Positions 4,113 to 29,330 of a stretch of DNA of 64,000 nucleotides are shown here, in pieces. Below the pieces are notes generated by a model. The model had not been told where the DNA came from. It did not search any database and saw only the letters and a program-made list of their open reading frames with translations. The first letter of the stretch is position 1; each line of letters opens with the position of its first letter. The translations under genes were made by a program, and so were the position numbers. The DNA is from an uncultured delta proteobacterium (GTDB taxonomy: Bacteria; Desulfobacterota; Binatia; JACPRU01): the NCBI GenBank assembly GCA_963745025.1, contig CAVUWD010000006.1, forward strand, positions 288,001 through 352,000. The letters run 5' to 3'.

Positions 4113-4949
4113 ATGTCGCTCGCTGGCCTACGTGTCGTCTCGTTCGAGAGCCGCCGTTCGGTCGAGATCGCGGAGCTCGTTCGCCGCCACGGCGGAGAGC
4201 CCCGGAGCGCGCCCGCCATGCGCGAGATGCCGCTCCCGGAGAGCCGGGCCGCCAGCGAGTTCGCCGAACGATTGACCCGCGGCGAAATCGACATCGTCAT
4301 CTTCCTGACCGGCGTCGGCACGCGGCTGCTCGTCGAGGCCGTTGCGCCCGCTCTCCCCTCGTCGCGCCTCGCTTCGGCCTTGTCGACGATCATCACGGTC
4401 GTGCGCGGCCCCAAGCCGCGCGCGGCGCTGGCCGAGCTCGGCCTCCGTCCGACGATCGTCGTCCCGGAACCGAATACGTGGCGGGAGCTTCTCGCCGCGA
4501 TCGACGCGCGCGAGTCGGTCTGCGGACGGAGAGTCGCCGTTCAGGAGTATGGCGCAGAAAACCCCGAGCTCATCCGCGGGCTCACCGATCGCGGCGCCAG
4601 CGTCTTCCGCGTGCCGATCTACCGCTGGGCGCTTCCCGAAGACCTCGGGCCGCTGCGCGCGGCGATCGCCGACCTGGTCGCCGGCCGGATCCACGTAGCT
4701 CTGTTCACCAGCGCGATTCAGGTCGAGCACCTCTTTCGGGTTGCGGAGGACGACCAAAGAGACCCGCTGCGCGCGGCGCTCGAGCGGGTCGTCGTCGCCT
4801 CGATCGGGCCGATCTGTACGAAGGCGCTCGCTCTGCATGGCGTGCAGGTGGACCTCGAGCCGGAGCATCCGAAGATGGGGCAGCTCGTACTTGCCGTTTC
4901 CAAGCGTGCCGCGGAGCTGCTTCTGGGCAAGCGCGAAACGCAGCGTTGA
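4113..4949 (+). CDS. hemD: Uroporphyrinogen-III synthase
   Basis: LAGLRVVSFESRR, FLTGVG, RGPKP, IYRWALP, FTSAIQV, SIGPIC. Confidence 0.88.
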   Translation: MSLAGLRVVSFESRRSVEIAELVRRHGGEPRSAPAMREMPLPESRAASEFAERLTRGEIDIVIFLTGVGTRLLVEAVAPALPSSRLASALSTIITVVRGPKPRAALAELGLRPTIVVPEPNTWRELLAAIDARESVCGRRVAVQEYGAENPELIRGLTDRGASVFRVPIYRWALPEDLGPLRAAIADLVAGRIHVALFTSAIQVEHLFRVAEDDQRDPLRAALERVVVASIGPICTKALALHGVQVDLEPEHPKMGQLVLAVSKRAAELLLGKRETQR

Positions 4950-5147
4950 CGCCCGTTTCAGCCGCTCAAATATTCTGCGGAACCATCGGATCTCGGCGAG
5001 AACGGGCGCCGGTGTCGCGTCGCTTCCGCCGTGGTCGGAGTCGGCCTCTGGTTCGTTCGATGCTCGCGTTCTTTCGGAGCCATCCGCGCGACGTGCGTCC
5101 CTGAGACGCAGCTGGACCTTCGATTCGCTTCTTGTCAAAGTACGTCC

Positions 5148-5909: not shown

Positions 5910-5951
5910 CGGCTGCTTCCGGCGATTCCTACGGGCCGCCGGAAGCAGCCG
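5910..5951. terminator. 15-bp perfect hairpin spanning the exbD stop codon
   Basis: CGGCTGCTTCCGGCG-N12-CGCCGGAAGCAGCCG. No U-tract, so terminator function is uncertain. Confidence 0.4.
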
Positions 5952-6372
5952 AGGGCGCCTCTTGCTTCTGCGCCGCGATCGAAATCGCTTGTGCCCCTGC
6001 CCGCTTGGCAAGGTCCATGATGCGGACGGCCTCACCGAGCAGCACCGATTGGTCCCCCTGGAGGATCACCAGCTTCTTCGGATCGTCCGCGAGGAGGTCG
6101 TGGAGCGTGGCCTGGAGCTGCGAGACTTCGACCGGCAGCTGATTGACGAAAATCTTGTTGTCGGCGGTGACCATGACCGTCAAGCCCCGCGCCTCTTGCA
6201 CCGTTTGCGTCGCCTTCGGGAGATTCACCTTCGCCGCCGACTCCACCATCACCGAGGTGGTGATCATGAAGATGATCAGCAGCACGAGAAAGATGTCCGT
6301 GAGCGGAGTGATGTTGATCTCCGCCATGAGCCCTTCCCCCGACTCCTCCGCGCTGAACTTACTTAGCGCCAT
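5929..6372 (-). CDS. ExbD/TolR family motor subunit
   Basis: EINITPLTDIFLVLLIIFMIT with the conserved TM Asp; VNLPKA. Confidence 0.94.
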   Translation of the reverse strand: MALSKFSAEESGEGLMAEINITPLTDIFLVLLIIFMITTSVMVESAAKVNLPKATQTVQEARGLTVMVTADNKIFVNQLPVEVSQLQATLHDLLADDPKKLVILQGDQSVLLGEAVRIMDLAKRAGAQAISIAAQKQEAPSAASGGP

Positions 6373-7039
6373 GGACGCCTCCCAGATCGGCGGCCTCGAG
6401 CACCTTGCCGAGCCCGACGCGTAGCAGCGTGTCGAGGTTCCCGATCTTCACCTGCAGGAAGTTGAAGAAGATGACCGCGATGATCGCGACGATGAGTCCG
6501 AGCGCGGTCGCGATCAGCGCCTCGGAGATCCCCGCGGCAACCACGGCAAAGCCGCCCGTACCCATCACCGCCATCTGATGGAACGCCTTGATGATGCCGA
6601 TGACGGTGCCGAAGAGACCGATGAACGGCGCCGAGGCCCCGATCGTCCCGAGGATCCAGACATCGCGCTTCAAGAGCCGTCCTTCGTCGAGCCGGCGGCG
6701 CTCGCCGTACTCGAGGATCTCTTCGATGTCGCCCATGCGGATGAGCGGCAGCAGCCCCAAATAGATGCGCGCCGCCGGTGCTCTGGTCTGGCTCGCTTCG
6801 ATCAGCTTGGAGGCCGAGGTCAGATCCCCCTTCCGCAGGTGTTGGCAAACGTCTTCGGTGAAATTCTGGATCCCACCCGATAGCCCGCGCATCGACCACA
6901 AGCGCTCGATGACGATGCTCGTCATGACCACCGAGAAGAGGATCAGCGGGTAGGTCGCGTACCAACCCTGGTTGATGAGGTCGATCAGATTGATGTTTGC
7001 TGCGGCTCCCGTTGCGGCTGTGGCTGCTGCACCCTCCAT
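6359..7039 (-). CDS. MotA/TolQ/ExbB proton channel subunit
   Basis: APFIGLFGTVIGII...GISEALIATALGL. Confidence 0.95.
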   Translation of the reverse strand: MEGAAATAATGAAANINLIDLINQGWYATYPLILFSVVMTSIVIERLWSMRGLSGGIQNFTEDVCQHLRKGDLTSASKLIEASQTRAPAARIYLGLLPLIRMGDIEEILEYGERRRLDEGRLLKRDVWILGTIGASAPFIGLFGTVIGIIKAFHQMAVMGTGGFAVVAAGISEALIATALGLIVAIIAVIFFNFLQVKIGNLDTLLRVGLGKVLEAADLGGVHGAK

Positions 7040-7127
7040 GGGTCCTCCTTCTTAGCCTCTGTTGAGGCCGCCCCCGTGCGCGCGGCCATTCGCGGTGTGA
7101 TCCGATGGGTTCCGTGCTCGCACGCCC

Positions 7128-9476
7128 TTACCCCTTTGGTACGTTGCAGGCCTTGGCGGCCAGATCCTCGAACCGTTTCTTCGTCGGTCGATCGCGCAAA
7201 TCGGGCCGGAATCCGTCGACCTCCTGGACGCTCTTGCACGCCTCGTCGTTCCGTCCTGCCGCGATCAAACTACCGGCTGTCGACAAGCGGGCTTGGTACC
7301 AGGCCGGCGTCGCCACCTCCTGGAGCATCGCCAGGCGCGCCCAATAGTCCGCCGAGTCCGCCGCGGCGTTTCGCCGGTCGGCCACCATCGCTGCGTTGCG
7401 CAGCACGGTCTTCGATTTCGGCGACTCCGTAACCAGGTCGCGATAGAGCACCGCCGCCTCGTCGAGACGCCCTTGTTCGGCGTAGATCTGCGCGAGGTTC
7501 GACTTGACGTCGCCCGGGATCGGCCGCCCGTCGGCTCTCAGGCGATCGAAAATGTTCGCCGCTAGAGCCGCCCACTTCTGCGCCATCGCGGGATCGGTCG
7601 GGGCGGCATCGGCCGAGGTGCGAAGGAAGTTGTGGGCGATCTTTTCGAGCAGGTCGGCGAAGCCGGCATTCTTCTGCACCGGAGGCAGGCTGGCGACTCC
7701 TTTGGCCGCATCGTCGTAACGACCGAGACCGCTGGCCGACGCGAGACGGAGCGCGGTGGCCAGAAGGTGGAGATCGGTCGCGGACGGATACCGCTTCTCG
7801 AAATCCCGCAGCGTCTCCAACGAGTCGGCCAAGCGCGGCGACGGTCCGACACTCTCACTCATCGCCTTGGCCAACGTCGCGCGCGCTCGAAGCTCCGCCG
7901 TCGCCCCCGACCGGCCATCCGCAGCGACCCGTTGAAAGCGCTCGTAGGCCCGCGCCGCGCGAGCGCGGAGCGGGTCCGCCCACGCCTTCTGCGCATCCTT
8001 CGGCGCATCGGACAGCACGTCTGCGAGGCATTGCAGCTCGGCGGCCGCCGCGCGCACCTCGAAGGCCGGCGGACCCTTGACCCGAGCGAATGCATCGGCG
8101 GCTTCCTGGAACTTTCGCTCGCCTTGCAGGATCTCTCCCCAGCGAAACACTCCTTCGTAGGCATTCTCGTGCCGGGGATAGTTCTTCACGTAGTTTTCGA
8201 CGGCGGCCGTGAACAGGCTGCGCGTCTCGACGGTCGGACGCTCGCGGTAGATCCCTTCCGCCGAACGGAACTGGAGGTACGCCGCTTCGGCAGCCAGCCG
8301 CGACTGCGGCGCGGCGTTCAAGTAGGCGCGAAACTCGCGCTCCGCCTCGGAGTAGCGGTTGAGGCGAAAGTAACAGACGCCGAGGCGATGATGCGCCTCG
8401 TTGGCGTGCTGCCGAGCTCCGGGATCCGTGCTGCGCAGCACCGCCTCGTATGCCGGAATCGCTTCCCGGAACTTGTCCACGCTCGCCAGGTTTTCAGCCG
8501 CGATCCATTCGGCCGACACGGTGTTGCCGAGCAGCTGGCGGGGATCCTTAAGGTGCGAGACCGCGATCTCGTAGACCCGCTTCGACCAGCCCGGCCCGAG
8601 CTCGGAGAGTTGCTGGGCGAGCGCGACCGCTTCGCGTCCCTGCGACTCGCTCATTCCGCCCTTGCCCGCGCTCGCCGCCAGCGCTTCGAGGCGCAGCAGA
8701 CGCATCTGGTTCAGCGCCTCCTCCGGCGTTGCGGACGCCGACGCGTCGGCGAGGAGCTTCTGCGTCTCCGCGAGGGCATCGCTGCCGCCAGACCTCGACT
8801 TCGCCTCGGCCAGTACCAGGTTCGCGGGGCCGTAGAGCGGTGATTCCTTGCCGCGCTCGAGGATGGCCTGCAGGTCGCCGATCGCCGCGCCGCGCTCACC
8901 GAGCTCCATTTCGGCCATCGCACGGCCGAGCAAGCTCTCGCCGCTCATCTTCGGGTCCTGCGCGTAGACGAACTCGGAAAACTCCTTGACGCTCTTCTTC
9001 AGCCACTGCGTGCGCCGCTCCTTGTCCTCGGGATGGAGCATGGCCACCCGGTAGTGGAGCCACGACAATTGCCCGGCCGCCGCGAGCGAGAAGCCGCGAT
9101 CGAGCTGCCACCATTTCTGCTCGTAGAGCACCTCGGGATTGCCGTCCTCAGCGATGATGTCGTTCTGCGCCCTGTCGATCCGACCCTGATGAAAATTGTA
9201 GAGCCGCTCGAGCAGCGGCAGCAGCCCGTCAGCGAGACCAACCGCCGAGGATCGCGCCTCCGCAATCCCGGACCGTTGGGACCGTACCCACGTGTCGTAG
9301 CGATTCGCCACCTCGACGGAGACGTCGGCGAGGTTGCCGAAGAGCGCCTGCTCCTCTTGCTCGCCCAGCTGGCCCGCCACCGCGCGATCCACCTCTTCCG
9401 AGAGCTCGGAGAGCGAAGCCGCATTCGCCGCCGGGACGCGGAGGCCGATGATCGTGAGCAGGAGGGCCGGAATCAT
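7128..9476 (-). CDS. Large exported TPR-repeat protein
   Basis: Signal-peptide-like MIPALLLTIIGLRVPAANAAS; TPR repeats such as AHHRLGVCYFRLNRYSEAEREF; ATGA overlap with the upstream VWA gene. Confidence 0.8.
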   Translation of the reverse strand: MIPALLLTIIGLRVPAANAASLSELSEEVDRAVAGQLGEQEEQALFGNLADVSVEVANRYDTWVRSQRSGIAEARSSAVGLADGLLPLLERLYNFHQGRIDRAQNDIIAEDGNPEVLYEQKWWQLDRGFSLAAAGQLSWLHYRVAMLHPEDKERRTQWLKKSVKEFSEFVYAQDPKMSGESLLGRAMAEMELGERGAAIGDLQAILERGKESPLYGPANLVLAEAKSRSGGSDALAETQKLLADASASATPEEALNQMRLLRLEALAASAGKGGMSESQGREAVALAQQLSELGPGWSKRVYEIAVSHLKDPRQLLGNTVSAEWIAAENLASVDKFREAIPAYEAVLRSTDPGARQHANEAHHRLGVCYFRLNRYSEAEREFRAYLNAAPQSRLAAEAAYLQFRSAEGIYRERPTVETRSLFTAAVENYVKNYPRHENAYEGVFRWGEILQGERKFQEAADAFARVKGPPAFEVRAAAAELQCLADVLSDAPKDAQKAWADPLRARAARAYERFQRVAADGRSGATAELRARATLAKAMSESVGPSPRLADSLETLRDFEKRYPSATDLHLLATALRLASASGLGRYDDAAKGVASLPPVQKNAGFADLLEKIAHNFLRTSADAAPTDPAMAQKWAALAANIFDRLRADGRPIPGDVKSNLAQIYAEQGRLDEAAVLYRDLVTESPKSKTVLRNAAMVADRRNAAADSADYWARLAMLQEVATPAWYQARLSTAGSLIAAGRNDEACKSVQEVDGFRPDLRDRPTKKRFEDLAAKACNVPKG

Positions 9477-10690
9477 CTTCCCGCAGCGAATTTCTCGACC
9501 TCCTTCCTCCACTTCGGCCCGAAGGCAGCGATCATCAGCTGCTCGGTGATCCGGTCGCCTTGACCAATCGGCAACAGCTCACCGCCGCCGAGCCTGGCGA
9601 GATTCGCGCAGTAGGTCTGGAGATCCTTGAGGAACACCGGCATGGGCGAGATCTGGTCTGGCGGGTGGCCGTACATCTTGGTGTAGACCTCGACCTCGTA
9701 GTTGCGGTGCATGATCTCGGCGAGGTCGAGGACGTGGACGATTCCGCCGTTTTGGTGAAACGAGCGAACGAATTCCTCGGTCTGCTGGACCTCCTGCGGA
9801 TGGGCGGGGGAGCTCGGCACGAGCACGATCACCCGGTGCGCGTACTTCCGCCAGTTGATCTGCTGCGTGGCCGTCTTCAAACCGTCCATCACCGCCTCTT
9901 CGTAGTCGCCGCCGCCTCTGGCCTGGATGTTGCCGATGAACGAGCGGAGCTTGTCGAGGTGAAACGTGAGGTCCGATTTGCGAACCACGAACTCCTCGCC
10001 CTTGTCCTTGTAGAGCACGAGGCCGACTCGCGCGTTCGGCACGAGCTTGCGGATCGTATCGACGAGGGTCGCGAGCTGCTGCTTCACCGGGTCGATCACG
10101 AAGTCCATGCTGTCGGTGGCGTCGATCACGAAGACGACGTCGAAGCCGGTCTTCTCGAGCAGGCCGACGAAGTCACCGAACCCGCGCCCGAAGCCTCGCC
10201 CGATCCCCCCACCGAGGCCGCCGCCGGCGCCGATCCCCGGGCCGAGCGCCATGCCACCGCCGGTCGAGCCCATGTTGCGCAGCGCCGAGGCCTGCGGCAG
10301 CGGGTTGATCCTCGGCGCGACCGCGGCGAGCTTCACGCCCACGTCGGAGAGGTCGGGCGTAACTTCGCTGGCGACCTCCGGCAGCGGCTGCACTTGCTCG
10401 ACCGCCTTGGCGATCTCCTCCTCCAGCGACTTCGATTCCTCCGTCCGATTGGTCTGCCGGTCGAGCTCTCCGTGCCCCGAGAGCGTCGAGAACATCTCGC
10501 CCTTCCCTCCCATGCTGTCGCCCGCACCGCCGCCGCCGTCGAGCACGATGGTGGCGACGAAGAAGAGCAGAATCAGCGCGTGCACCGCGATCGAAACGAT
10601 GTACGAGATGCTGGCCTTGAAGTAATCGCGGCGGAGCCAAGGATAGAGCGACGTCAGCGGAGGACGCTTTTTGCGGGTCTCGGCCACCAA
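9473..10690 (-). CDS. Membrane-anchored VWA-domain protein with TonB-like SxxxH transmembrane helix
   Basis: TM IVSIAVHALILLFFV, Gly-rich linker, MIDAS-like VFVIDATDSM, GGGDYEEA. Confidence 0.85.
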   Translation of the reverse strand: MVAETRKKRPPLTSLYPWLRRDYFKASISYIVSIAVHALILLFFVATIVLDGGGGAGDSMGGKGEMFSTLSGHGELDRQTNRTEESKSLEEEIAKAVEQVQPLPEVASEVTPDLSDVGVKLAAVAPRINPLPQASALRNMGSTGGGMALGPGIGAGGGLGGGIGRGFGRGFGDFVGLLEKTGFDVVFVIDATDSMDFVIDPVKQQLATLVDTIRKLVPNARVGLVLYKDKGEEFVVRKSDLTFHLDKLRSFIGNIQARGGGDYEEAVMDGLKTATQQINWRKYAHRVIVLVPSSPAHPQEVQQTEEFVRSFHQNGGIVHVLDLAEIMHRNYEVEVYTKMYGHPPDQISPMPVFLKDLQTYCANLARLGGGELLPIGQGDRITEQLMIAAFGPKWRKEVEKFAAGR

Positions 10691-12533: not shown

Positions 12534-12622
12534 GCTGTCCTCCTCTCACCGCATTTGACTTTCCTCTGGACCGAACGTTTATATTGGCTTCGTCTCGGAC
12601 AACCAAGGGGGTTCACCGAAAA

Positions 12623-13354
12623 ATGAGAACACATTGGCTTCCCGTCGTGCTGTCAGTCACGAGCCTGGGCGTGCTGACACCCGCCCACGCCTCCGACCTC
12701 TCGGAGATCAAGGATACGCAGAAAACGATCCTCGAGCGGCTCGACGCGCAGGACAAGGTGCTGAAAGACATCCAGACCAAGCTCCAGCAGATGCCGACCG
12801 GCGGGCGACCACAGATCGATCCCAACAAGATTTATCAGATCGCACTCGGCAGCTCGGCGATCCGTGGACCAAAGAACGCTCCCGTCACGCTGGTCGAATT
12901 CAGCGACTTCCAATGACCCTTCTGCGCTCAGTCCACCGGTCTGGTGGACCAGGTCCTCGCGGCCTACCCGAAGGAGCTTCGCTTCGTCTACAAGCAGTTC
13001 CCGCTCGAGCAGATTCATCAGAACGCCATGAACGCGGCCAAGGCCTCGGTGGCTGCCGGCAACCAGGGCAAGTTCTGGGAGATGCACGACGAACTCTTCA
13101 AGATCTCGCGGGATCTATCGATGGGCGAGATCCGCAAGAAGGCCGAGGCGATCGGCCTCGACATAAAGAAGTTCGATGCCGACATGGCCTCCCCCGAAAC
13201 CGAGAAGGCCGTGCGCGCCGACCTGGAGGTCGGCCGCACCGTCGATGTGACAGGCACGCCGACGATGTTCATCAACGGCAAGCGGGTGATGAACCGCTCG
13301 CTCGAGGGAATGAAGGCGATGGTCGACGAGGAGTTGAAAAAGAACAAGGGTTAG
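12623..13354 (+). CDS. Exported DsbA/thioredoxin-fold selenoprotein (UPFC active site)
   Basis: Signal peptide, then GPKNAPVTLVEFSDFQ-TGA(12914-12916)-PFC in frame with ...GKFWEMHD...VTGTPTMFINGK. The ORF track splits it into two. Confidence 0.9.
12917..12955 (+). promoter_or_regulatory. Bacterial SECIS-like hairpin
   Basis: GTCCACC (12931-12937), loop GGTCT, GGTGGAC (12943-12949). Loop begins with G after a 21-nt spacer from the UGA. Confidence 0.8.
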
Positions 13355-13383: not shown

Positions 13384-13417
13384 GAGAGCCCGTGCGATAG
13401 CTCGCGCGGGCTCTTTT
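13384..13417 (+). terminator. Rho-independent terminator of the dsbA gene
   Basis: GAGCCCGTGCGA-TAGC-TCGCGCGGGCTC followed by TTTT. Confidence 0.75.
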
Positions 13418-13518
13418 CATTCGCAGCACGCCTCGGCGCGCGCCAGAGGCAAAGGGAGATTCAAACGCCAGGAAGAACCGCTGGCTTCCCGCCGGCGCGC
13501 CGATTTCGAGGCCAGCCG

Positions 13519-13604
13519 CATCAACGGCAAGCGGGAGAATGAACCGCTCGCTCGAAGGAATGAAGGCGATGGTGGACGAGGAGCTGAAGAAGGGCAAACG
13601 ATAG
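13519..13604 (+). pseudogene. Diverged duplicate of the 3' end of the dsbA gene
   Basis: CATCAACGGCAAGCGGG...GAACCGCTCGCTCGA.GGAATGAAGGCGATGGT.GACGAGGAG closely matches 13270-13354. Confidence 0.85.
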
Positions 13605-15298: not shown

Positions 15299-16132
15299 CT
15301 AGCGGCCTTTCACCAGCCGGCGATAGGCCCGCAAGTGCCGCACCGCCACGACGCCTCGCCCCTGCCGTTCGTAGAGGCGGGCAAGGTTGTAGTGAGCATC
15401 GGCATAGCTGCCGTCGATGGCGAGCACGCGCTGGTAGGCGGCGATCGCGTCCTCGATGCGCTCTCGATCCTCCAGCACCACGGCGAGGTTGAACGAGGCC
15501 GTCACGTCGTTCGGCTCGGCGACGAGCGCCTGACGATAGTGGGCTTCCGCGGCTCCGATCTCTCCGGCCTCGTGCAGCAGCCTCCCCAAGTTGGTGTGGG
15601 CCGCGCCGTGAGTCGGATCGAGCTCGATCGCCCGCCGGTACGCATCCCGCGCGTCTTCGGGACGGCTCGTCTCGAGCTCGCAACCAAGCTCGTACCAATC
15701 CTCCGCGCGCAAGCGGGCGGTGGCGACTCGAGCCTCGGCGACGCGGCGCTCGGCGAGCGGCGCGACTTTGTCGGCGAGCTCTGCCACATCGAACGAAAAG
15801 AGCTGCTGGCCGGATTCCGGATTCCAGCGCCGCCGGCCGTCGCGCACGACGACCCGACCGCCCTCCGCGGAAATCGACAAGGCGCTCAGCGGTCGGCCGA
15901 TCGGCAGCTCGGCTCGAAGCTTCCGCAACGCGGCGCGCACCCGCTGCGGCGCGATCGCCTGGCCGACGAGCTCCTTCGCGGCGCGGAGCAGCACGAGGTC
16001 CGGAAAGGAGAAGCGGAGCTCCCCTCGCCGCCCCCGCTCCGGGGCCAGAAACCCGCTACGAACGAATCCCCGAACACGGCCGACGGAAAGGCCGAGAAGC
16101 TTCGCCACCTCGCGAGAGGTGTACCCGCTCAT
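15299..16132 (-). CDS. MerR-like HTH plus TPR-repeat protein
   Basis: N-terminal YTSREVAKLLGLS...FSFPDLVLLR; C-terminal TPRs (AHTNLGRLL, ASFNLAVVL, AHYNLARLY); ATGA overlap with the ku stop. Confidence 0.85.
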   Translation of the reverse strand: MSGYTSREVAKLLGLSVGRVRGFVRSGFLAPERGRRGELRFSFPDLVLLRAAKELVGQAIAPQRVRAALRKLRAELPIGRPLSALSISAEGGRVVVRDGRRRWNPESGQQLFSFDVAELADKVAPLAERRVAEARVATARLRAEDWYELGCELETSRPEDARDAYRRAIELDPTHGAAHTNLGRLLHEAGEIGAAEAHYRQALVAEPNDVTASFNLAVVLEDRERIEDAIAAYQRVLAIDGSYADAHYNLARLYERQGRGVVAVRHLRAYRRLVKGR

Positions 16133-17025
16133 GCTCCCGAGGTCTTGGAGCTCTTTTCCCGCGCCGCCTTGCGGAGCGACGCGGCTCGCGGAGCACGCCG
16201 CGCCGGCTTCCGCTCTTCGGATGGAGCCTCGACCGGCGAAGGCGCTGCGCGCTTGGCGCCGAGGCTCGCCTTCAACGCCTCCATGAGGTCGATGATCTGC
16301 GCTCCTCGGCGGGCCTCGGGCGGCGGAGCGGAGATCTCCTCGCCTTCGATCTTCTTCTGGATGAGTTCGCGGACGCGCTTGCGGACGTCGTCCTCGTACG
16401 CCTCGGGCCGAAACGCGTCGGTCGAGATCTGTTCGACGAGCTGCACCGCCAGCTTCAGCTCGGCATCCCGGACTTCGGCTTCGCCGATCGGCACCTCGCT
16501 GCGCGAACGGATCTCGTCGGCGTAGTGCAGCTGCTGCATGACCAGCGCGCCGTCGAGCGGGCGAATCATCACCAGGTACTGCTTGCCGCGCGCCGCGTAG
16601 CGGCCGAGCGCCGCTCGGCCCGTCTGCTGCATCGCCCTGCCGAGCAGCCGGTACGCCTTGTCGCCGCCCTTGTCGGGACCGAGGTAGTACGGCCTTTCGA
16701 AGTAGATCGGATCCACCTTCTCGAGCGGCACGAATTCGGTGATCTCGATCGTCTGCGTCGATTCCTCCTCGAGCGCTTTCAGCTCCTCGGGAGTGAAGGT
16801 CACGTAGCGGTCCTTGGCGAACTCGTATCCCTTGACCATGTCGTCACGGGAGACGGCCTCGTTCTCCCGCGCACAGTAGTACTGCTGCTTCAAGCGCGAG
16901 CCGCACTTCTTGTGCAGCCAGTTGAAGGTGATTCCCGACGCCGATTCGGTCGCCGAATAGAGCTTGATCGGGATCGAGACCATCCCGAAGGAGACCGTCG
17001 CGGACCCGATGGAGCGCGCAGCCAT
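16129..17025 (-). CDS. ku: Ku protein (NHEJ)
   Basis: MAARSIGSATVSFGMVSIPIKLYSA, VKGYEF, IYFERPYYL, IIDLMEALKASL and a basic tail. Confidence 0.96.
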   Translation of the reverse strand: MAARSIGSATVSFGMVSIPIKLYSATESASGITFNWLHKKCGSRLKQQYYCARENEAVSRDDMVKGYEFAKDRYVTFTPEELKALEEESTQTIEITEFVPLEKVDPIYFERPYYLGPDKGGDKAYRLLGRAMQQTGRAALGRYAARGKQYLVMIRPLDGALVMQQLHYADEIRSRSEVPIGEAEVRDAELKLAVQLVEQISTDAFRPEAYEDDVRKRVRELIQKKIEGEEISAPPPEARRGAQIIDLMEALKASLGAKRAAPSPVEAPSEERKPARRAPRAASLRKAAREKSSKTSGA

Positions 17026-17052
17026 GAATGTTTCTGTTAGCATAGCCCGCCG
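17026..17052. promoter_or_regulatory. Candidate bidirectional promoter for ku and ligD
   Basis: 27-bp gap holding overlapping -10-like hexamers: TGnTAGCAT on + (17035-17043) and TATGCT on - (17044-17039). Confidence 0.5.
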
Positions 17053-19575
17053 ATGGCCGCCAACCCCGAGCGGGACCGGCTCGCCGAGTACCGAGGCAAG
17101 CGCGATCCGGAACGCACCCCCGAGCCCTTCGGCCATTCGCAGGGGCGGATCGAGGCGCCATCGGGCGCGCTGCGGTTCGTCGTGCAGAAGCACGCCGCGC
17201 GGCGTCTGCACTACGACTTGCGGCTCGAGCTCGGCGCCGTGCTCAAGTCGTGGGCGGTGCCGAAGGGCCCGTCGCTCGATCCCGCCGAGACGCGCGTCGC
17301 CGTCGCCGTCGAAGATCATCCGCTCGAGTACGCGAACTTCGAGGGCGTGATCCCCGCGGGCAACTACGGTGCGGGAGAGGTCATCGTCTGGGACCGCGGA
17401 ACCTGGGTTCCCCTCGAGGACCCCGAGAGCGGTCTTGCCAAGGGGAAGCTCCTCTTCGAGCTCAAGGGCTACAAGCTGCGCGGCGTCTGGACGCTCGCCC
17501 GGCTCAAGCGCTCGGTGAAGGATTGGTTGTTGATCAAGAAGGCGGACGCCTGGGCGTCGCCCGCGATGCCGCCGGCCGAAGATTCGGTGCTCTCGGGCTT
17601 GACTCTCGAAGAGCTCCGGGCGGGCAATACCCGCGGAACGGAGATCGTCGCCCGCCTCGAACGGGTCGGCGTGCCGAAGCATCCGGTGCGTGCCAGTGGA
17701 GTGAGGGTGATGCTCGCGGAGACCCGCGAGCGGCCGTTTTCCAGCAAGCAGTGGCTTTTCGAGCTCAAGTACGACGGATACCGCCTGCTGCTCGGGCGCG
17801 AGAGCGGCGAAGCCCGCCTTCTCTACCGCCGCGGCAACGAGGTGAGCGCCACCTTTCCGGAGATCGCGCAAGCCGTCCGCTCGTTGCCCTTCGAGGAGCT
17901 GGTGATGGACGGCGAAGTCGTGGTGCTCGACGAGACCGGGCGGCCGAGCTTCCAGCGCCTGCAGAAGCGCGCTCAGCTGACGCGGCCGCTCGACGTCGCG
18001 CGCGGCGCCCTCGAGCAGCCGGCGACCGCCTACGTCTTCGATCTCCTCGCCTTCGAAGGCTACGATCTGCGACGGCTGCCGCTCGTCGAGCGGAAGCAAA
18101 TCCTCCGCGAGGTCCTCCCCCGCGCCGGTCCGCTCCGCTTCACCGATCACGTGGAGGAGCGCGGCGAGGATCTCTTCGCAGAGATCGGCCGGCTCGGTCT
18201 CGAAGGCATGGTGGCGAAGCGCGCGTCCTCCCTCTACCGCGAAGGGCGCTCCGCGGATTGGCTCAAATTCCGCCACGAGACGACCGGCGATTTCGCAATC
18301 ATCGGCTTCACCGAGCCGAAAGGCTCGCGGTCGGGAATCGGGGCGCTCCACCTCGCCGTGCGCGCGAATGGCGGGCTTCGCTACGCCGGCCGCGTCGGTA
18401 GCGGATTCGACGAGCGCTTGCTTGGCGAGCTGCGGCAGCGACTCGAGGCACGCCGGCTCGCCACCCCCCGCTGCTCGGGCCCGCTCCCGACGGGCAAGGG
18501 CGATCGCTGGGTCGCGCCCGAGCTCGTCTGCGAGGTTCGTTTCAAGGAGTGGACGGGTGACGGCCTCCTTCGTCAGCCGGTCTTTCTGCGGTTACGCGAA
18601 GACAAGAGCGTCGACGACTGCGTCGCCGAGGGCTTCCCGGGTGCGCTTCCCGAGCCGTCCGCCCGAGCAGGCGCGTCTCTGGAGCGCGTCATTCGCTTCA
18701 CCAACCTCGACAAGGTCTTCTGGCCGGAGGAAGGCTACACCAAAGGAGATCTCATCGAGTTCTACCGGAGGGTGTCGCCGTGGCTCCTTGCCTATTTGCG
18801 AGATCGTCCGCTCGTGCTCACGCGCTTTCCCGACGGGATCGCAGGCAAGTCCTTCTATCAGAAGGACGCGCCGGGCTTCGCTCCCGAATGGATCCGCACG
18901 GAGCGAGTGTGGAGCGAGCACGCGGGACGCGAGATCGACTACTTCGTGTGCGACGACGTCGATTCGCTTCTCTATCTCGTGAACCTCGGCACGATCCCGC
19001 TTCATCTCTGGTCGAGCCGGGTCGGCAGCCTGGAGCGGCCCGACTGGTGCATCCTCGATCTCGATCCCAAGGGGGCGCCGTTCCGCGACGTCGTGGCGCT
19101 CGCGCTGGCCATTCGTCGGCTCTGCGACTCGATCGAGCTGCCCGCGTTCGTCAAGACGAGCGGAGCGACGGGCCTCCACGTTCTCGTTCCGCTCGGCGCC
19201 CAGCATACCTACGAGGAGTCGCGCTCGCTCGGTGAGCTGCTCGCGCGCGTCGTCAACCGCGAGCACCCCGACATCTCGACGATCCTCCGCAAGGTCAGCG
19301 ACCGGGCGGGCCGCGTGTATCTCGACTACCTGCAAAACCGCCACGGCCAGACGATCGCCGGACCCTTCAGCGTCCGTCCACTGCCGGGCGCGCCGGTATC
19401 GACGCCGCTTCGTTGGACCGAGGTCGGCGCGCGCCTCGATCCACGCCGCTTCACGATCACGACGCTGCCCGCGCGACTCGACCGCCGTCCCGAGGACCCG
19501 CTACGCGAGGTCCTGACGCAGAAGCCCGACCTCGCACGTGCGCTCGAACGGCTCGCCGGGAGGCTGGCCCGCTGA
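17053..19575 (+). CDS. ligD: DNA ligase D (phosphoesterase-ligase-polymerase)
   Basis: FVVQKHAARRLHYDLRLE, ELKYDGYR, EGMVAKR, TNLDKVFWP, LDLDP, KTSGATGLH. Confidence 0.97.
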   Translation: MAANPERDRLAEYRGKRDPERTPEPFGHSQGRIEAPSGALRFVVQKHAARRLHYDLRLELGAVLKSWAVPKGPSLDPAETRVAVAVEDHPLEYANFEGVIPAGNYGAGEVIVWDRGTWVPLEDPESGLAKGKLLFELKGYKLRGVWTLARLKRSVKDWLLIKKADAWASPAMPPAEDSVLSGLTLEELRAGNTRGTEIVARLERVGVPKHPVRASGVRVMLAETRERPFSSKQWLFELKYDGYRLLLGRESGEARLLYRRGNEVSATFPEIAQAVRSLPFEELVMDGEVVVLDETGRPSFQRLQKRAQLTRPLDVARGALEQPATAYVFDLLAFEGYDLRRLPLVERKQILREVLPRAGPLRFTDHVEERGEDLFAEIGRLGLEGMVAKRASSLYREGRSADWLKFRHETTGDFAIIGFTEPKGSRSGIGALHLAVRANGGLRYAGRVGSGFDERLLGELRQRLEARRLATPRCSGPLPTGKGDRWVAPELVCEVRFKEWTGDGLLRQPVFLRLREDKSVDDCVAEGFPGALPEPSARAGASLERVIRFTNLDKVFWPEEGYTKGDLIEFYRRVSPWLLAYLRDRPLVLTRFPDGIAGKSFYQKDAPGFAPEWIRTERVWSEHAGREIDYFVCDDVDSLLYLVNLGTIPLHLWSSRVGSLERPDWCILDLDPKGAPFRDVVALALAIRRLCDSIELPAFVKTSGATGLHVLVPLGAQHTYEESRSLGELLARVVNREHPDISTILRKVSDRAGRVYLDYLQNRHGQTIAGPFSVRPLPGAPVSTPLRWTEVGARLDPRRFTITTLPARLDRRPEDPLREVLTQKPDLARALERLAGRLAR

Positions 19576-20568: not shown

Positions 20569-21195
20569 TCATGAGGCGCGCCCGCTCGCGCCGGGGTCGT
20601 CTCTCCACGGGGATTCGCACTTCGCGACCTCGCGGAGGATCTCCTCGTTGCTCGGGAGCGATCGGCTCTTGCTGCCCTCCATGTACGAGCCCGCGAGCGA
20701 GTAACGGACCACGCCTCGTTTGTCGACGATGACGAAGCCCATGTCGTCGTCGTTGAGGAGCTTTCGCGTCTCGTCGAGCGGGGGAAGGAAGTCGCCGAAG
20801 TCGTTCGCTGGCTTTTCGGCCATCGCGCCCTGGATGAAGCCGCGAACGTAGTGACCGAGGCCGTGGCTGCGCTGACCTAGCCCCCACTCGCGGCGGACCT
20901 GATAATCCGGGTCACAGAGGTAGGGGAACGGCAGCGTGAACTTCTTCGCGTAGGCCTGAGCCCGGGAGACCCCGGACACCGACACCTCCAGGATCTCGGC
21001 ATCGAGCTTCTGCAGGTCGCCGTAGGCTCGCGAGAGCTGCGACATCTGCGCGCGGCAGAACGGGCAGGCCATGCCCTTGGTGAACCAAACGATGACGTTC
21101 TTCTTGCCGCGGAAATCGTCCAGACCAATCTCCGCGCCCTGCGCCGACGGCAATCGGAACGACGGCGCAGGCTGTCCCACGGCGACTTCTGACAT
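20569..21195 (-). CDS. AhpC/TSA peroxiredoxin-like redoxin
   Basis: VGQPAPSFRLP, FTKGMACPFC, LPFPYLCDPD; GGAGG SD upstream. Confidence 0.88.
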   Translation of the reverse strand: MSEVAVGQPAPSFRLPSAQGAEIGLDDFRGKKNVIVWFTKGMACPFCRAQMSQLSRAYGDLQKLDAEILEVSVSGVSRAQAYAKKFTLPFPYLCDPDYQVRREWGLGQRSHGLGHYVRGFIQGAMAEKPANDFGDFLPPLDETRKLLNDDDMGFVIVDKRGVVRYSLAGSYMEGSKSRSLPSNEEILREVAKCESPWRDDPGASGRAS

Positions 21196-21218
21196 CGGTC
21201 TATCCTCCCTCGCCATTG

Positions 21219-24200
21219 CTAGCAGAGAAACGGCAACACGAGAAAACTATCGCTCGACCACCCGGCGGCCTCCTGGACCGCACGGCTGCGCGCCAGCCAC
21301 CGCTCGGCCTCCTCCTCGTCCTCCTCCTCGATCGCCAGCGTCGCCAGACCGTCGTAGCAGGGAAAGAGCAGCTGCGGCTCGCCGAGCGCCTCCGCCAATG
21401 CGAGCGCTTCGCGGTATCGTTCGCCGCTCCGCGCATAGTCACCGCGACACTGATAGATCTGCGCGAGGATGATCATCGGAATCGGCAGGTGGCTGTGCTG
21501 GCCGAGGCGCCGGTCGAGGTCGATGGCCGCCTCCGCCGCCTTGACTCCTTCGTCGTAGTCGCCGGCGAGCGTGCAGTGGCCGCCGGCCAGCGCGCAGTAG
21601 AGCCAGGACTGCTGCAGCTGATCCCCGATCCGCTGCGCGAGCGCGAGCCCCTCGCGACAGTATTGCGCGGAGCGTTCGTGATCGAGGCTCGTGAACATCA
21701 CCGCGAGGTTGGCGTAGGCTCGGCACGCAACCGCCGACAAATCGTGCGCGAGCGCCGTCTCCAAGCTCTTCTGCACGGTCGCGGCGCCGCGCTCGAGCTC
21801 CCCCGCGCGGGCGAGAGCGACGCCGAGCGTGTTGTACGCGTGGGAGACCACGTCGGGCGCACCAAGCCGCTCGCCGAGCGCCAGCGCTTTCCCCGCCCAC
21901 TCGGTGGCACGCGGATTGTCGCCGAGTCGAAAGTGGATGCGCCCGAGCTCGTCGTAGAGCCTCGCCGCTTCGAGGTTGTCGGCGGCGCCGTCGAGCGCCG
22001 CGAGGCCGGCGTCGAGCTCACCGAGCGCGAGCTCGGTCTGGCCTGCCGCCCAACGGGCGGCCGCGCACTTGCGCCGCAGATCGGCGATCCTGGGGCGGTC
22101 GTCGCTCTGGGACACGCAAGCCAGCGCGGCCGCCCAATGCTCGAGCGCCACGGCGATGACGCCGCGCGCGAACGCAACGTCACCGAGCCGATCGAGCACG
22201 GTCGATCGTTCGCCCGCGAGCTCGGCATGCGCATCGATCAACGCGAGCGCGTCGCCGTAGCGGGCTTCGGCATCCTCGTAGGCGAAGAGACGCGCCGCGC
22301 GTGCGCCTACGCGGAGAACGTATTCCAACGACTTCGCACGCTCGCCGCTCTGACCGTAGTGACGAGCGAGGTCCTGCAGCACTTCTTCGGTGCGATCGGC
22401 GTAGAGGCGCTCGAGCGCCCGGCCGGCCTGGCCGTGGAGCTCCGCGCGCGACTTCAGAAGCAGCCCCTGGTAGGCGACGTCGCGGATCAACGCCTGCGCG
22501 AACGACAGGCGGAGCTCGGGGAACAGCTCCTTCTCGTGAAGGAGCTCGAGCGCGACGAGCTCGGAAACCCCGCCTCGCGCGTCTTCACCTTCGGGCGTCA
22601 TGGCCTCGAGCACCCGCAACGGAAACTCCCGCCCGAGCACCGAGGCACGCTGGAGGATGCGCTTCAGCGGCTCGCGCAGCCGGTCGATTCGAGCGGTCAA
22701 GAGGTCGTGGATCGTCTCGGGTACGCCGCCGCCCGCCCCTTCTCCGCGGCCCCGCAGGTAGCCGGCGAGCTCTTCAATGAAGAAGGGATTGCCCTCGGCG
22801 CGATCGACAACCAGATCGCACAGCGACCGCGCGTCCGGCGCCGGCAGCAGCGCCCCGACCATTCGCATCGCTGCCGCCGGCGCCAGCGGCTCGAGCGTGA
22901 GGCGTTGATGGAAGCTCCGCTCCTGCCACGGCGGGACATAGCCCGAGCGGTAGGTGCAGAGAACGAGCATGCGCCGGTCGGCGAGCGTGTCGATCAGCGA
23001 GCGCAGCGCTTCTTCGGAGCTGCGATCGATCCACTGCAGGTCCTCGACGAGAAGCAGCTGCGGGCGGTCTTCGGCCGCGCGGAACACCAGCGCCTTGATC
23101 GCTTCGAGCGTGCGGCGCTTGCGCTGCGCTTGATCGAGGCCCTCGGTCTCGAGCTCGGGCGCCGGCAGCGCGAACAGCAGCTTGCAGTACGGCACGGCCC
23201 ACGCCAGCCGCGGATCGAGTCGCCCGACCCCGCTCGCCAGCTTCGCGATCTGGGCGCTTTCCGTCTCGCCTTCCTCGAGCCCGAACTGCGAGCGCAGAAG
23301 TTCGACGACGATCCGGAACGGCGCCGCTTCGCCGTGTGGAAGGCAATCGGCCTTCAGGAACCCGAACGACGTTCCTTCGAGGCGTCGGCGAAGCTCGTAG
23401 GCGAGCCTCGATTTCCCCGACCCGGCGTCGCCGACGAGGGACACGGCCTGCCCGCGCCCGGCGCCCACGCGCTCGCAGCAATCGGCTAGAAACTCGAACT
23501 CACCCTCACGGCCGACGAGCGGGCTGAGACCGCGCTCGACCGCTGAGTCGAAGCGGGTGCGCTGCGCGCGCGCGCCGGTCACCGCGAACGCACGCACCGG
23601 ACGGTCGATGCCCTTGACGGTCAGCTCGCCGCGATCCTCGGTCACGAAATCGCGGCTCGCGAGACGGTGCGTCGCCTCGCTCACGAGCACGCCACCCGGC
23701 TGGCCGGCTTGTTGCAGGCGGGCCGCGAGGTTCACCGTCTCTCCCTGCGCCGTATAGTCCATGCGCAGGTCGTCGCCGATCTTGCCGACCACCACGGGGC
23801 CGGTATTGAGGCCGACGCGCAGGCCGAACTCCAAGCCGCGCTCGCGCCGAAGGTCGGCCGCATAGCCGGCGAGCGACTTCTGAATCGCCAGCGCCGCGGC
23901 GATGGCGCGCACGGCGTGATCCTCGTGGGCGATCGGCGCGCCGAAGAGCGCCATGACCCCGTCTCCCGTGAACTGATTCACGGTGCCCTCGTAGCGGTGC
24001 ACGGCCTCCGTCACGCGGTGGAAGCACCCGTCCATGATCTCGTGCAGCTCCTCGGGATCGACCCGCGTCGACAAGGACGTGAATCCGGCAACGTCGGCGA
24101 AGAGAACCGTCACTTGCTTGCGCTCGCCCTCGATCGCGCCCCGACTGGTGAGGATCTTCTCCGCGAGATGACGCGGCGTGTACGATCCCGGTGAGGGGGG

Positions 24201-26423: not shown

Positions 26424-29321
26424 CGGGCAACCGGTAGGCCTCCCGCGACGGCTTGAGCGGGCGTAGCAGCCAGTAGGGCCGCCGCGTGCCGTCCGGCGAG
26501 ACGCGCGCGGCGGGGCGCGTGATCTCGAGCCAGCGCCGGTAGACCTCGTGGGCCTTTTCCACGTCGACCGAGATGTCGCCGTACGAGTCTCCCGCTTCGG
26601 CGCGACGCACCCGCACGGCTTGATGCCAGCAATGCATCCCCGAGATCGGATCGGGATGAACCGGAAACGTCAGGTTCTGATGGACTCCCGCGTCCGTCCA
26701 CCAGATCCGCCGCGTATCGGCATCGGCGCTATCGTGCGGCTCGACGCCCGCCTTGCGCCGCAGCGCGAAGCGCTTGCCCTCGCGCGTGAACGCGACCGTG
26801 GCCATCATCTGCCGTTGCCCGTGCCTGTGCGGGTCGAGCTTCCAGCGACCCATGTGGTGACTGCAAGCGACGACGCCGGGGCGGATTCCCTCCGTGACCC
26901 AGGCCTTGACGACGAAGTAACCAATCTCGGTCTCGACGCGAACGAGCTCGCCGGTCGCCACGCCGAGCGGCGCCGCATCTTGCGGATGCATCCAAAGCGG
27001 GTTCGTGTGCGCGATCTCGTCGAGCCATTTGGCGTTGGCGCTCCGCGTATGGATCTGCACGGGCAGCCGGAAGGTCGGAACCAGCGCCATCTGCCCCGGC
27101 TCCAGCCTCTGGGGATGAATGTGGCTGCGGATGTACGTGGGCAGCGCGTACTCGGGCCAGCCCCAGCGATCGAGCGTGGAAGAGTAGAACTCCAGCCGGC
27201 CGCTCGGAGTCGGAAATCCCCGCAAAATCTTGCCGTCGATCTCGATGCCGACGAGGCGCCTCCCCTCCGCATCGGGATCGGGAGTCGGCAGCGGCACGAT
27301 GTTCGCCCCCGCCGGCTTCGCCGTCTTCGTGTAGACGCGGCCGAGGTCGTCGACGCGTACGTCGTCGAGCTCGCTCGCCGCGACTCCCTCCTCGTGCAGC
27401 GCGGCGATCTTCTTCTTCACTTCGAAGCTGCCGTAGCGCCGCATGTACTCGAGCGGCTTCAAGCCCTCCTGGCGGCGCGCTCCGGCAGACCCGGAATCGA
27501 GTTCTCGAAGAGAAAACCGTAGTACTCGTCGACGCCGAGCTTCGTGGCGGGTGTCTTCTTCGATTCGAAGTAGCGGCGAATTCCCATCTTCCCATCGGGG
27601 TCGATGCGCCAGGAAAGCTCGATCCAGAATTCGTTCTCTTCCCACACCTCGCCCGGGTTGATCTCGCGTGTGTCCGCGGGCGCCGGCTGTCCGAGCCGCT
27701 CGCGCGCGGCGCGCAAGACGGGCTGACGGAAGCCGAGCCACTGCGCATCGTGGGTCTCGTAGGAATGGAGGTCGTGCCGTTCGGAGGCGAGGCCCATGGG
27801 CAGCACGTAGTCCGCGAAATACGCCGTCTCGCTCCACGTCGGGCTGAGCGCCACGTGCAGGCCGACGAGCGTCTCGTCGGTGAGCACCTCGATCCAGGTG
27901 AAGCCGTCGGGGTTCGTCCACACCGGGTTGTAGACCCGCGAAAAGTACACCTCGAGCCGTCCGCGCCCGTCCTTCAAGAGATGCGGCAGCAACATCGACA
28001 TCTCGTTCATCGCCAGCGGATATTCGGCCGGCCAGTTGAGGTCGTTCCAGACCTGCGGATGCGCGGGCACGTGGATCGGGCGCGGCACGAACTTGTTGGC
28101 GACGTTCGGATGCGTCCCGCCCTCCGTGCCGATCGCGCCGAGCAGCGCATTCAGCAGGAAGAGCGTGCGCGAGACTTGCCAGCCGCCGAGATTGCCGGCC
28201 GCCGCGCTCCGCCAGCTGTGCGTCGCCAGGCGCGTGCGCGCGCGCGAGACGACGTCGGCGAGCTCGGCGATGGTCTTCGCATCGACCCCGGATTCCTCGG
28301 CGGCGAACTCGAACGTGTAGCTCTCGTAAAGTCGTGCGAGCTCGTGCTCGAAGCTCTCGAACGTCGGCTCTCGGTCGGGATGCTTCACGCGCATGTACTC
28401 GTGCCAGTTCCACCAGCGCCGCACGAACTCACGATCGTAGAGCCGGTGGTGGATCAGATGGCGGGCGATCGCCAGGAGGATCGCCGGCTCGGTCCCGGGA
28501 TACGGCGCGATCCAGTAGTCGGCGTGCGTGGCGGTGTTCGAGAGGCGCACGTCGAAGACGATGATCTTCGCGCCGCGCTTCTTCGCCTCGATGATCCGCT
28601 GCGCGTGGGGATTGAAGTAGTGTCCCGACTCGAGGTGCGCGCTGATCAGCACGATGACGTCGGCGTTCGCGTAGTCCGGGCTCGGCCGGTCGAGCCCCAT
28701 CCAGTAGTGATAGCCGGCGCGTCCGTTCGAGGAGCAGATGTTGGTGTGCGAGTTGTGGCCGTCGAGCCCCCATGCCGCGAGCACGCGCTCGGTGTAGCCG
28801 TCCTCGCCCGGCCGGCCGACGTGATAGACGACCTCGTTCCGCCTGTCCTCCTGGATCGCGCGACGGATGCGCCCGGCGATGTCGTCGAGCGCCTCGTCCC
28901 AGGAGACGCGCTGCCATTTCCCCTCTCCGCGCGCGCCGCTGCGCTTCAGAGGATGGAGGATGCGGTGTGGATCGTACACCTGGTTCAGCGTCGCCGGCCC
29001 CTTGGCGCAGTTGCGGCCGCGCGAGCCGGGATGCTCGGGATTGCCTTCGAATTTGCGGATCTCGAGGGACTCCTTGTCGACGTAGGCGAGAAGGCCGCAG
29101 GCCGACTCGCAGTTGAAGCACGTGGTCGGCACGAGCATGTAGCGGCGCTCGACGCGCTTCGGCCACGCGCGCGAATCGAGCTCGACCCAGTCGTCCCAGC
29201 GCTCTTTCGGGGGAAACGCCGCGAGATCGATCGCGCTCGGCCCCGGATAGTAGGTCTCGCCGCGAGCCTCCGTGGCGGGCTTTGCCGCCGACACGCGCGG
29301 ATTCCGTTTGGTCGTCTCCAA
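26404..29321 (-). CDS. Molybdopterin oxidoreductase catalytic subunit (Psr/Ttr/Arr-like), frameshift near 27471
   Basis: TTCFNCESACG...CAKG Fe-S motif, SWDEALD, HTNICSS, ADYVLP, C-terminal binding domain (IHTRSAN, WMHPQDA). No twin-arginine leader. Confidence 0.9.
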
Positions 29322-29330
29322 CGTCGTCTC

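Follow-up and report, generated by a model that had tools for sequence, protein, structure and literature searches.

Does a TGA that interrupts a thioredoxin-like gene of an uncultured Binatia bacterium end translation, or does it encode selenocysteine (Sec)? We addressed this question in a 64-kb stretch of genomic DNA (hereafter, the window), where a forward-strand frame starts with an ATG at 12623, runs through 97 residues to a TGA and continues for 145 sense codons to a TAG at 13352-13354. As the original prediction had proposed for a DFQCPFC motif, this TGA occupies exactly the first Cys position of a DsbA/DsbG-type CPFC active site, and the roughly 145 further codons of DsbA fold that it had announced are present. 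We conclude that this is a real gene, very probably encoding Sec. For the overall explanation, in which the product is a Sec-containing exported oligomeric periplasmic disulfide isomerase/reductase, we estimate a probability of about 85%. The gene and its predicted parts are as follows:

12623-13354, plus strand: single coding sequence of 243 codons with the TGA read as Sec; predicted exported DsbG/ScsC-like thiol-disulfide oxidoreductase
12623-12691, plus strand: predicted Sec/SPI signal peptide without lipobox; basic start, hydrophobic core, AHA before S24
12695-12793, plus strand: predicted coiled-coil helix, residues about 25-57 (heptad position a, L/Q; position d, I/Q/M), a probable oligomerisation stalk
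12914-12925, plus strand: active site U-P-F-C, in which the TGA of codon 98 (12914-12916) replaces the N-terminal Cys; context DFQ-stop-PFC
12931-12949, plus strand: SECIS-like hairpin with a 7-bp stem and a GGUCU loop, -11.3 kcal/mol; the loop starts 21 nt past the UGA
13253-13261, plus strand: cis-Pro loop G-T-P (T212, P213); T-P is invariant in 71 aligned relatives

Two Pfam families align across the TGA, namely Thioredoxin_4 (PF13462; residues 79-236, 93.4 bits against a cut-off of 23.2) and DSBA (PF01323; residues 89-230, 81.4 bits, above its cut-off); the upstream half alone matched no family in a Pfam search. A reassigned genetic code in which TGA is read as Trp or Gly (code 4 or 25) was ruled out because TGA is the commonest true stop in this DNA, ending 33 of the 56 long coding-like open reading frames of the window.

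The position of the stop is conserved among relatives. When the upstream half was used as a protein query restricted to records of 53-170 aa, 112 of the 113 matches ended exactly at D[FY]Q, as seen in protein records that do not display the codon itself. Partial genes at contig ends do not account for this pattern because they would end anywhere. Lifting the length limit gave 283 matches; among the best 150 of these, a strict pattern places the end of 36 at the motif, inspection adds 12 that stop at variant motifs, 87 read Cys, and none of the 150 records carries U. With the read-through protein as query, 103 of the 120 matches listed were Cys forms; the other 17, of 135-136 aa, all start just past the site and share 91-98% identity with the downstream half. 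The C-terminal half is conserved as well as the N-terminal half, or better, and the closest relatives among the matches listed are split at the same place (P0123, 95% identical over the N-terminal half; P0051, 98% over the C-terminal half). The splitting by gene callers that the original prediction had anticipated is thus evident in both the upstream fragments and the C-terminal records. Atlas clusters of the N-terminal half, with 165, 90 and 52 members, are named "hypothetical protein", and Acidobacteriota and Binatota are the commonest taxa among the few members with a record.

The same column was followed in DNA. A genome scan returned at least 600 stretches, of which 549 were confirmed and the best 80 kept, representing 78 loci from mostly distant relatives. 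Across 143 alignments to these loci (22,622 codons), all five internal stops are TGA at the codon-98 column, in four genomes (L002, L018, L050 twice and L054), and the remaining two stops are natural C-termini. Of the 142 codons aligned at this column, 133 are Cys codons and 5 are TGA, the alternation for which an alignment of homologues had been suggested. All five TGA sites retain x-x-C downstream, and the codons from the TGA to the position of a GTG (12944 in the window) keep P-F/Y-C; these sites are few, come mostly from distant relatives, and two of them belong to one gene (L050). Altogether, the stop/Cys pattern covers Binatia-like, myxococcal and other deltaproteobacterial genomes.

How does this pattern bear on other readings of the TGA? 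A sequencing error, or a private TGC to TGA nonsense mutation in this assembly, had to be weighed seriously because the window is error-prone, with indel-type frameshifts in thrC (about 900-2261) and in a molybdopterin oxidoreductase gene (26700-29330). We nevertheless give it almost no chance, given that P0123 and P0051, the closest listed relatives, are split identically, as are more than 100 other clusters. Since the stop column is conserved, is always TGA and keeps x-x-C, error, private mutation and pseudogene are all very unlikely. If the TGA were a true stop, the locus would produce a coiled-coil peptide of 74 aa that is exported and a fragment of 136 aa that starts from the GTG at 12944 and stays in the cytoplasm, or else would be a lineage-wide pseudogene. 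Gene callers do predict both pieces, and the N-terminal piece has sizeable Atlas clusters of its own; against this, the cut would fall inside the thioredoxin fold, just past the first beta strand of the structure model, P-F/Y-C is kept between TGA and GTG in the TGA loci, the C-terminal half is conserved at least as well as the N-terminal half, and every stop observed in DNA is TGA. We regard a true stop as highly improbable. No greater weight falls on the idea that the TGA is read as Cys, by a UGA-reading tRNA-Cys with SelB, or as another residue, which would make this an ordinary CPFC enzyme. A UGA-reading tRNA-Cys working with SelB occurs in some Deltaproteobacteria, and Cys insertion would explain the same conservation pattern, with Cys forms that occur widely and lie scattered among the stop forms on a tree of the family. 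However, UGA-to-Cys systems are rare to our knowledge (a literature search returned no paper on them), SelB and a SECIS would still be needed, and the pattern extends over Binatia-like, myxococcal and other deltaproteobacterial genomes. That the TGA encodes Sec at codon 98 is, in our judgment, highly probable.

We further investigated the hairpin that follows the TGA. The bacterial SECIS consensus has been given as a loop of 3-9 nt with G in its first two positions, a stem of 4-16 bp, a spacing of 16-37 nt and an energy of at most -7.5 kcal/mol (PMC13188914, as quoted there), and we used our own implementation of these values. The 7-bp hairpin with a GGUCU loop at SECIS distance, part of the original prediction, falls within this consensus, and the GGUC apical loop that it had cited for E. 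coli fdhF is present in the fdhF sequence (L082), where GGUCU lies 18 nt past the UGA. At -7.5 kcal/mol, the consensus was found at 5 of 6 TGA sites (window included, and not fully independent of each other) against 2 of 133 Cys sites; at -5 kcal/mol, the counts were 6 of 6 and 6 of 133. Of the 23 true TGA stops in the window, 4 have it as well. Relative to dinucleotide shuffles, the hairpin region does not stand out (z -0.5 to -1.3), and when the same peptide was recoded synonymously, 774 of 3000 recodings passed -7.5 kcal/mol and 44 of 3000 were as stable as the real hairpin. In L002, which has the same architecture, a hairpin lies in the register of the window hairpin with a GUC loop, an A-U closing pair replaces G-U, and the two differ by compensating changes around the GUC loop. 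The hairpin supports the Sec reading, and conservation of the stop carries it.

Other TGA forms differ in layout. A Myxococcales MAG encodes a two-domain DsbA-like frame with TGA in both active sites (L050:9467-11065). One and the same 8-bp hairpin, with a GUC loop, comes after each TGA, and the product is probably a two-Sec protein. At L018:4265 and L054:9995, TGA forms carry a different N-terminal domain, and an AGUU-loop hairpin 34 nt downstream of the TGA gives this fold family a second SECIS placement.

Decoding of the TGA as Sec would require dedicated machinery, and we infer that the organism encodes selABCD. No selA, selB, selD or tRNA-Sec gene lies within the 64-kb window: E. coli SelA, SelB and SelD queries found no match there, no tRNA, tmRNA or Rfam family was found in it, and no tRNA was found in L001, L002, L018, L050 or L054. 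Against the 78 loci, the same queries gave only two partial matches to SelB-like GTPases, in unrelated loci (L067 and L070). A coding-score scan of the window for more read-through genes gave no convincing candidate, although the scan is a weak one that ranked the codon-98 site 6th of 651. An AhpC/TSA-like redoxin gene (20569-21246, minus strand) was considered as a second selenoprotein and rejected, as it has an ordinary CPFC and no in-frame TGA at the site; its product weakly matches a SelL-related model (49 against 120 bits).

What would the full-length protein do? Hydropathy and an A-x-A motif are kept in the signal region of most relatives (pLDDT is below 50 for residues 1-22), sequence inspection found no membrane segment beyond the signal-like residues 1-23, and we consider export of the protein highly likely on these grounds. 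In the heptad repeat, 8 of 10 a/d positions are hydrophobic and the other two are Gln, and the structure model (mean pLDDT 87.7, pTM 0.73) places a helix at residues 25-55. The ScsC_N trimerisation domain (PF18312) gave no Pfam match, and its Atlas feature score of 0.77 is a weak lead only. By Foldseek, the closest solved folds (E 1e-11 to 1e-9) are 3gyk, Caulobacter ScsC 7rgv, BdbD and Proteus ScsC, and the catalytic domain also matches Corynebacterium DsbA/TsdA. As shown by sequence and model together, the mature protein would begin with a coiled coil, followed by a DsbA-fold catalytic domain that carries UPFC and a T-cisPro loop.

We propose that SelB, bound to the GGUCU hairpin, would deliver Sec-tRNA at codon 98. 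The product would be a 243-aa preprotein, exported by the Sec pathway and cleaved past AHA. Its coiled coil would drive oligomerisation, as in trimeric ScsC proteins, and a DsbD/ScsB-type partner would keep the enzyme reduced; no DsbD, ScsB or DsbB partner was identified near the gene. The selenolate would then be the nucleophile that attacks disulfides of envelope proteins that are wrong or oxidised, with Cys101 resolving the mixed bond.

Whether the enzyme isomerises and reduces disulfides or introduces them is a closer call. We lean modestly towards an isomerase/reductase, because the coiled coil suggests an oligomer, a form linked to isomerases and to shielding from oxidase partners. In the published accounts we draw on, two ScsC proteins, from Caulobacter and Proteus, are trimeric isomerases (PMC8900818; PMC5524982), and oligomerisation has been proposed to keep ScsC-type enzymes from oxidase partners (PMC11634996). 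The same source describes ScsC proteins as showing both activities in vivo, which leaves room for a DsbA/BdbD-type dithiol oxidase whose coiled coil would be a tether or spacer. The best structural and sequence matches include BdbD and Corynebacterium DsbA/TsdA, Pfam DSBA passes its cut-off, and CPFC-like motifs with T-cisPro are present in oxidases such as BdbD. A Se-S bond, however, is more reducing than an S-S bond and would fit an oxidase poorly, and the suggested oligomer again points to an isomerase. We therefore hold the oxidase reading to be possible but rather unlikely, and the isomerase/reductase is the function that we retain.

The surroundings of the gene add three features:

13384-13418, plus strand: intrinsic terminator with a 14-bp stem and a U tail; z -6.8, none of 200 shuffles as good
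13451-13604, plus strand: remnant of a second tandem copy; collinear repeats D6, D3, D4 and D1 (13-68 nt, 81-95% identical), tblastn E 2e-5
12555-12585, plus strand: promoter-like site with a 19-bp spacer that resembles a MerR-family (CueR) promoter; a lead only

A glutathione S-transferase gene lies in divergent orientation to this gene, which is probably monocistronic in view of the strong terminator. The remnant retains an RBS-like site, the first ~8 codons without the ATG, a short middle piece between two internal deletions that remove the active site, and the last ~27 codons with a TAG; from this layout, a second copy is in all probability decayed to ~150 bp in this genome. The promoter-like site shares 21 of 31 bases with the promoter region of E. 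coli copA (L079), which we take to be CueR-controlled; no other site in the window matches as well (next best, 18), but the dyad here is only 5/7, the -35 and -10 boxes make up much of the match, and the similarity was noticed post hoc. No copA-like site was found upstream in L001 or L002, and a standard promoter scan found no sigma-70 site. A second TTGAC-N20-TANNNT site, without a dyad, occurs at 4946-4976 on the plus strand (two in the window against 0.14 expected).

Elsewhere in the window, a MerR-HTH/TPR gene clusters with Ku and LigD of non-homologous end joining at 15299-19575, 2 kb from the gene. On the minus strand, 5929-10690 encodes a VWA protein, a long TPR protein and an ExbB/ExbD-like pair, together an envelope system on which the oxidoreductase could act. 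For the citrate synthase encoded next to the gene, identity is 90% to proteins of Ca. Binatia bacterium and Deltaproteobacteria bacterium and 81-82% to those of Binataceae, and the named DsbA-like matches agree with this Binatia-type affinity.

In relatives, Sec and Cys forms appear to occur paired on one contig. The evidence is indirect: a Cys-form and a split-form record match in longest-contig size in eight cases (18428, 33692, 76360, 3875 and 2576; also 911, 1031 and 1033, perhaps by chance), for example P0002 (Cys form, 86%) with P0051 (split form, 98%). The Cys paralogue seems to be a selenium-independent alternative. The locus also appears syntenic from contigs shared with citrate synthase, as 16 of the top 51 citrate synthase rows (of 120 listed) match a family member of either form in longest-contig size. 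In a Binatia-like MAG, two family members with Cys codons lie in tandem at L001:780-2090, and an N run directly follows the first Cys of the second one.

A quick tree was built from 187 upstream halves (113 stop-form and 74 Cys) over 77 columns, with multi-domain sequences, short sequences and one odd row excluded. The stop/Cys label changes at least 16 times on it, with four changes forced by strongly supported branches, against 58.6 changes for shuffled labels. What this 77-column tree suggests is repeated switching between Sec and Cys, in one direction or the other.

These observations may be joined into a broader scenario, which we offer as speculation and consider improbable as a whole. 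Aerobic soil Binatia would have a paired, selenium-tunable envelope redox system, in which Sec (UPFC) and Cys (CPFC) paralogues of one coiled-coil ScsC-like isomerase switch repeatedly, could co-assemble via coiled coils that are nearly the same, and have copper as a possible inducer acting on the MerR-type promoter. When selenium is short, the Sec gene would give no more than the exported coiled-coil piece; loss of the second copy here would leave the function selenium-dependent, and the switch would extend to two-Sec multi-domain myxobacterial proteins such as that of L050.

If the Sec reading is right, a large uncultured aerobic soil lineage is a probable user of selenocysteine, contrary to the usual association of selenoproteins with anaerobes. 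The available text on Binatota (PMC8262859) portrays the group as aerobic, and a recent review states, in the part consulted, that aerobes rarely keep selenoproteins (PMC13188914). The aerobic setting suggested by the oxygen-dependent enzymes that had been noted beside the gene is supported by PaaA, which scores above its cut-off, and by a P450, both encoded in the window. The text and nine supplementary files of PMC8262859 contain no selenium terms, and the main text of the deep-Sep paper mentions neither Dsb nor Binat. No paper on selenoproteins in Binatia was found in a search that covered few subscription papers, and the supplements of selenoproteome surveys may list such genes. More than 100 sequence clusters now filed as truncated or hypothetical form a subfamily in need of its own annotation model, and the natural Sec/Cys pairs, ~86% identical, offer a ready test of what selenium contributes to periplasmic oxidative folding.

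The gene can finally be set against known families. Predicted selenoprotein classes, in the portions of the sources cited, include a "DsbG-like protein" (COG1651, PF13462, UxxC) and a "DsbA-like protein" (COG2761, PF01323, UxxC) (PMC1088965; PMC1794560; PMC9312934; PMC13188914). The original prediction was thus right that DsbA-like selenoproteins are already known (PMC1088965; PMC9312934; PMC13188914). Its own label stands in part: the product has a DsbA fold and is predicted to be a UxxC selenoprotein, but it is better called DsbG-like/ScsC-like (PF13462-COG1651), and the coiled coil argues against a DsbA-type oxidase. Exported selenoproteins are not new either, as SaoB, SaoX and SaoC are reported in the available text of 10.1101/2022.07.06.499078.

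The closest fit is the DsbG-like class, known since about 2005. Thioredoxin_4 is the top Pfam match in both, and both have UxxC at the N-terminal Cys, an in-frame TGA with a downstream SECIS and widespread Cys homologues; the Thioredoxin_4 score and the UPFC motif fit membership of the window gene in this class, as judged from sequence. Published examples in the cited sources are few, with one Sargasso sequence, two genes in a 2006 survey and a current representative tied to NF041057, and the window gene differs in its SPI-type signal, its coiled coil and its occurrence in Binatia. NF041057 (Rcas_1661 family thioredoxin-like (seleno)lipoprotein) is also the best NCBIfam match (E 3e-21) and is likewise an exported, thioredoxin-like Sec/Cys family. 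However, the score is 76.1 bits against a cut-off of 190, the match is limited to the catalytic domain, and the lipoprotein signal of that family was not found: the N-terminal region has no Cys, and a lipobox-like motif occurs in 0 of 113 fragments.

"DsbA-like protein form 1" (PF01323, COG2761, UxxC) shares the DsbA fold, UxxC and the PF01323 match (81 bits), but this class is defined on COG2761, whereas PF13462 gives the window gene the higher score and relatives of the gene carry the label protein-disulfide isomerase, the COG1651 name. The cut-offs for classical DsbA (NF047695, 35.5 of 290 bits; PRK10954, 26.4 of 279) and DsbG (PRK11657, 16.6 of 124) were not reached. ScsC (Caulobacter 7rgv, Proteus 4xvw/5idr) and BdbD (3eu3) share the catalytic fold, the T-cisPro loop, an N-terminal helical extension and export, but identity is only 18-27%, none of them contains Sec, and the window locus has no scs operon. 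Altogether, the gene very probably adds to a known selenoprotein class an unmodelled coiled-coil subfamily in an apparently unreported aerobic lineage.
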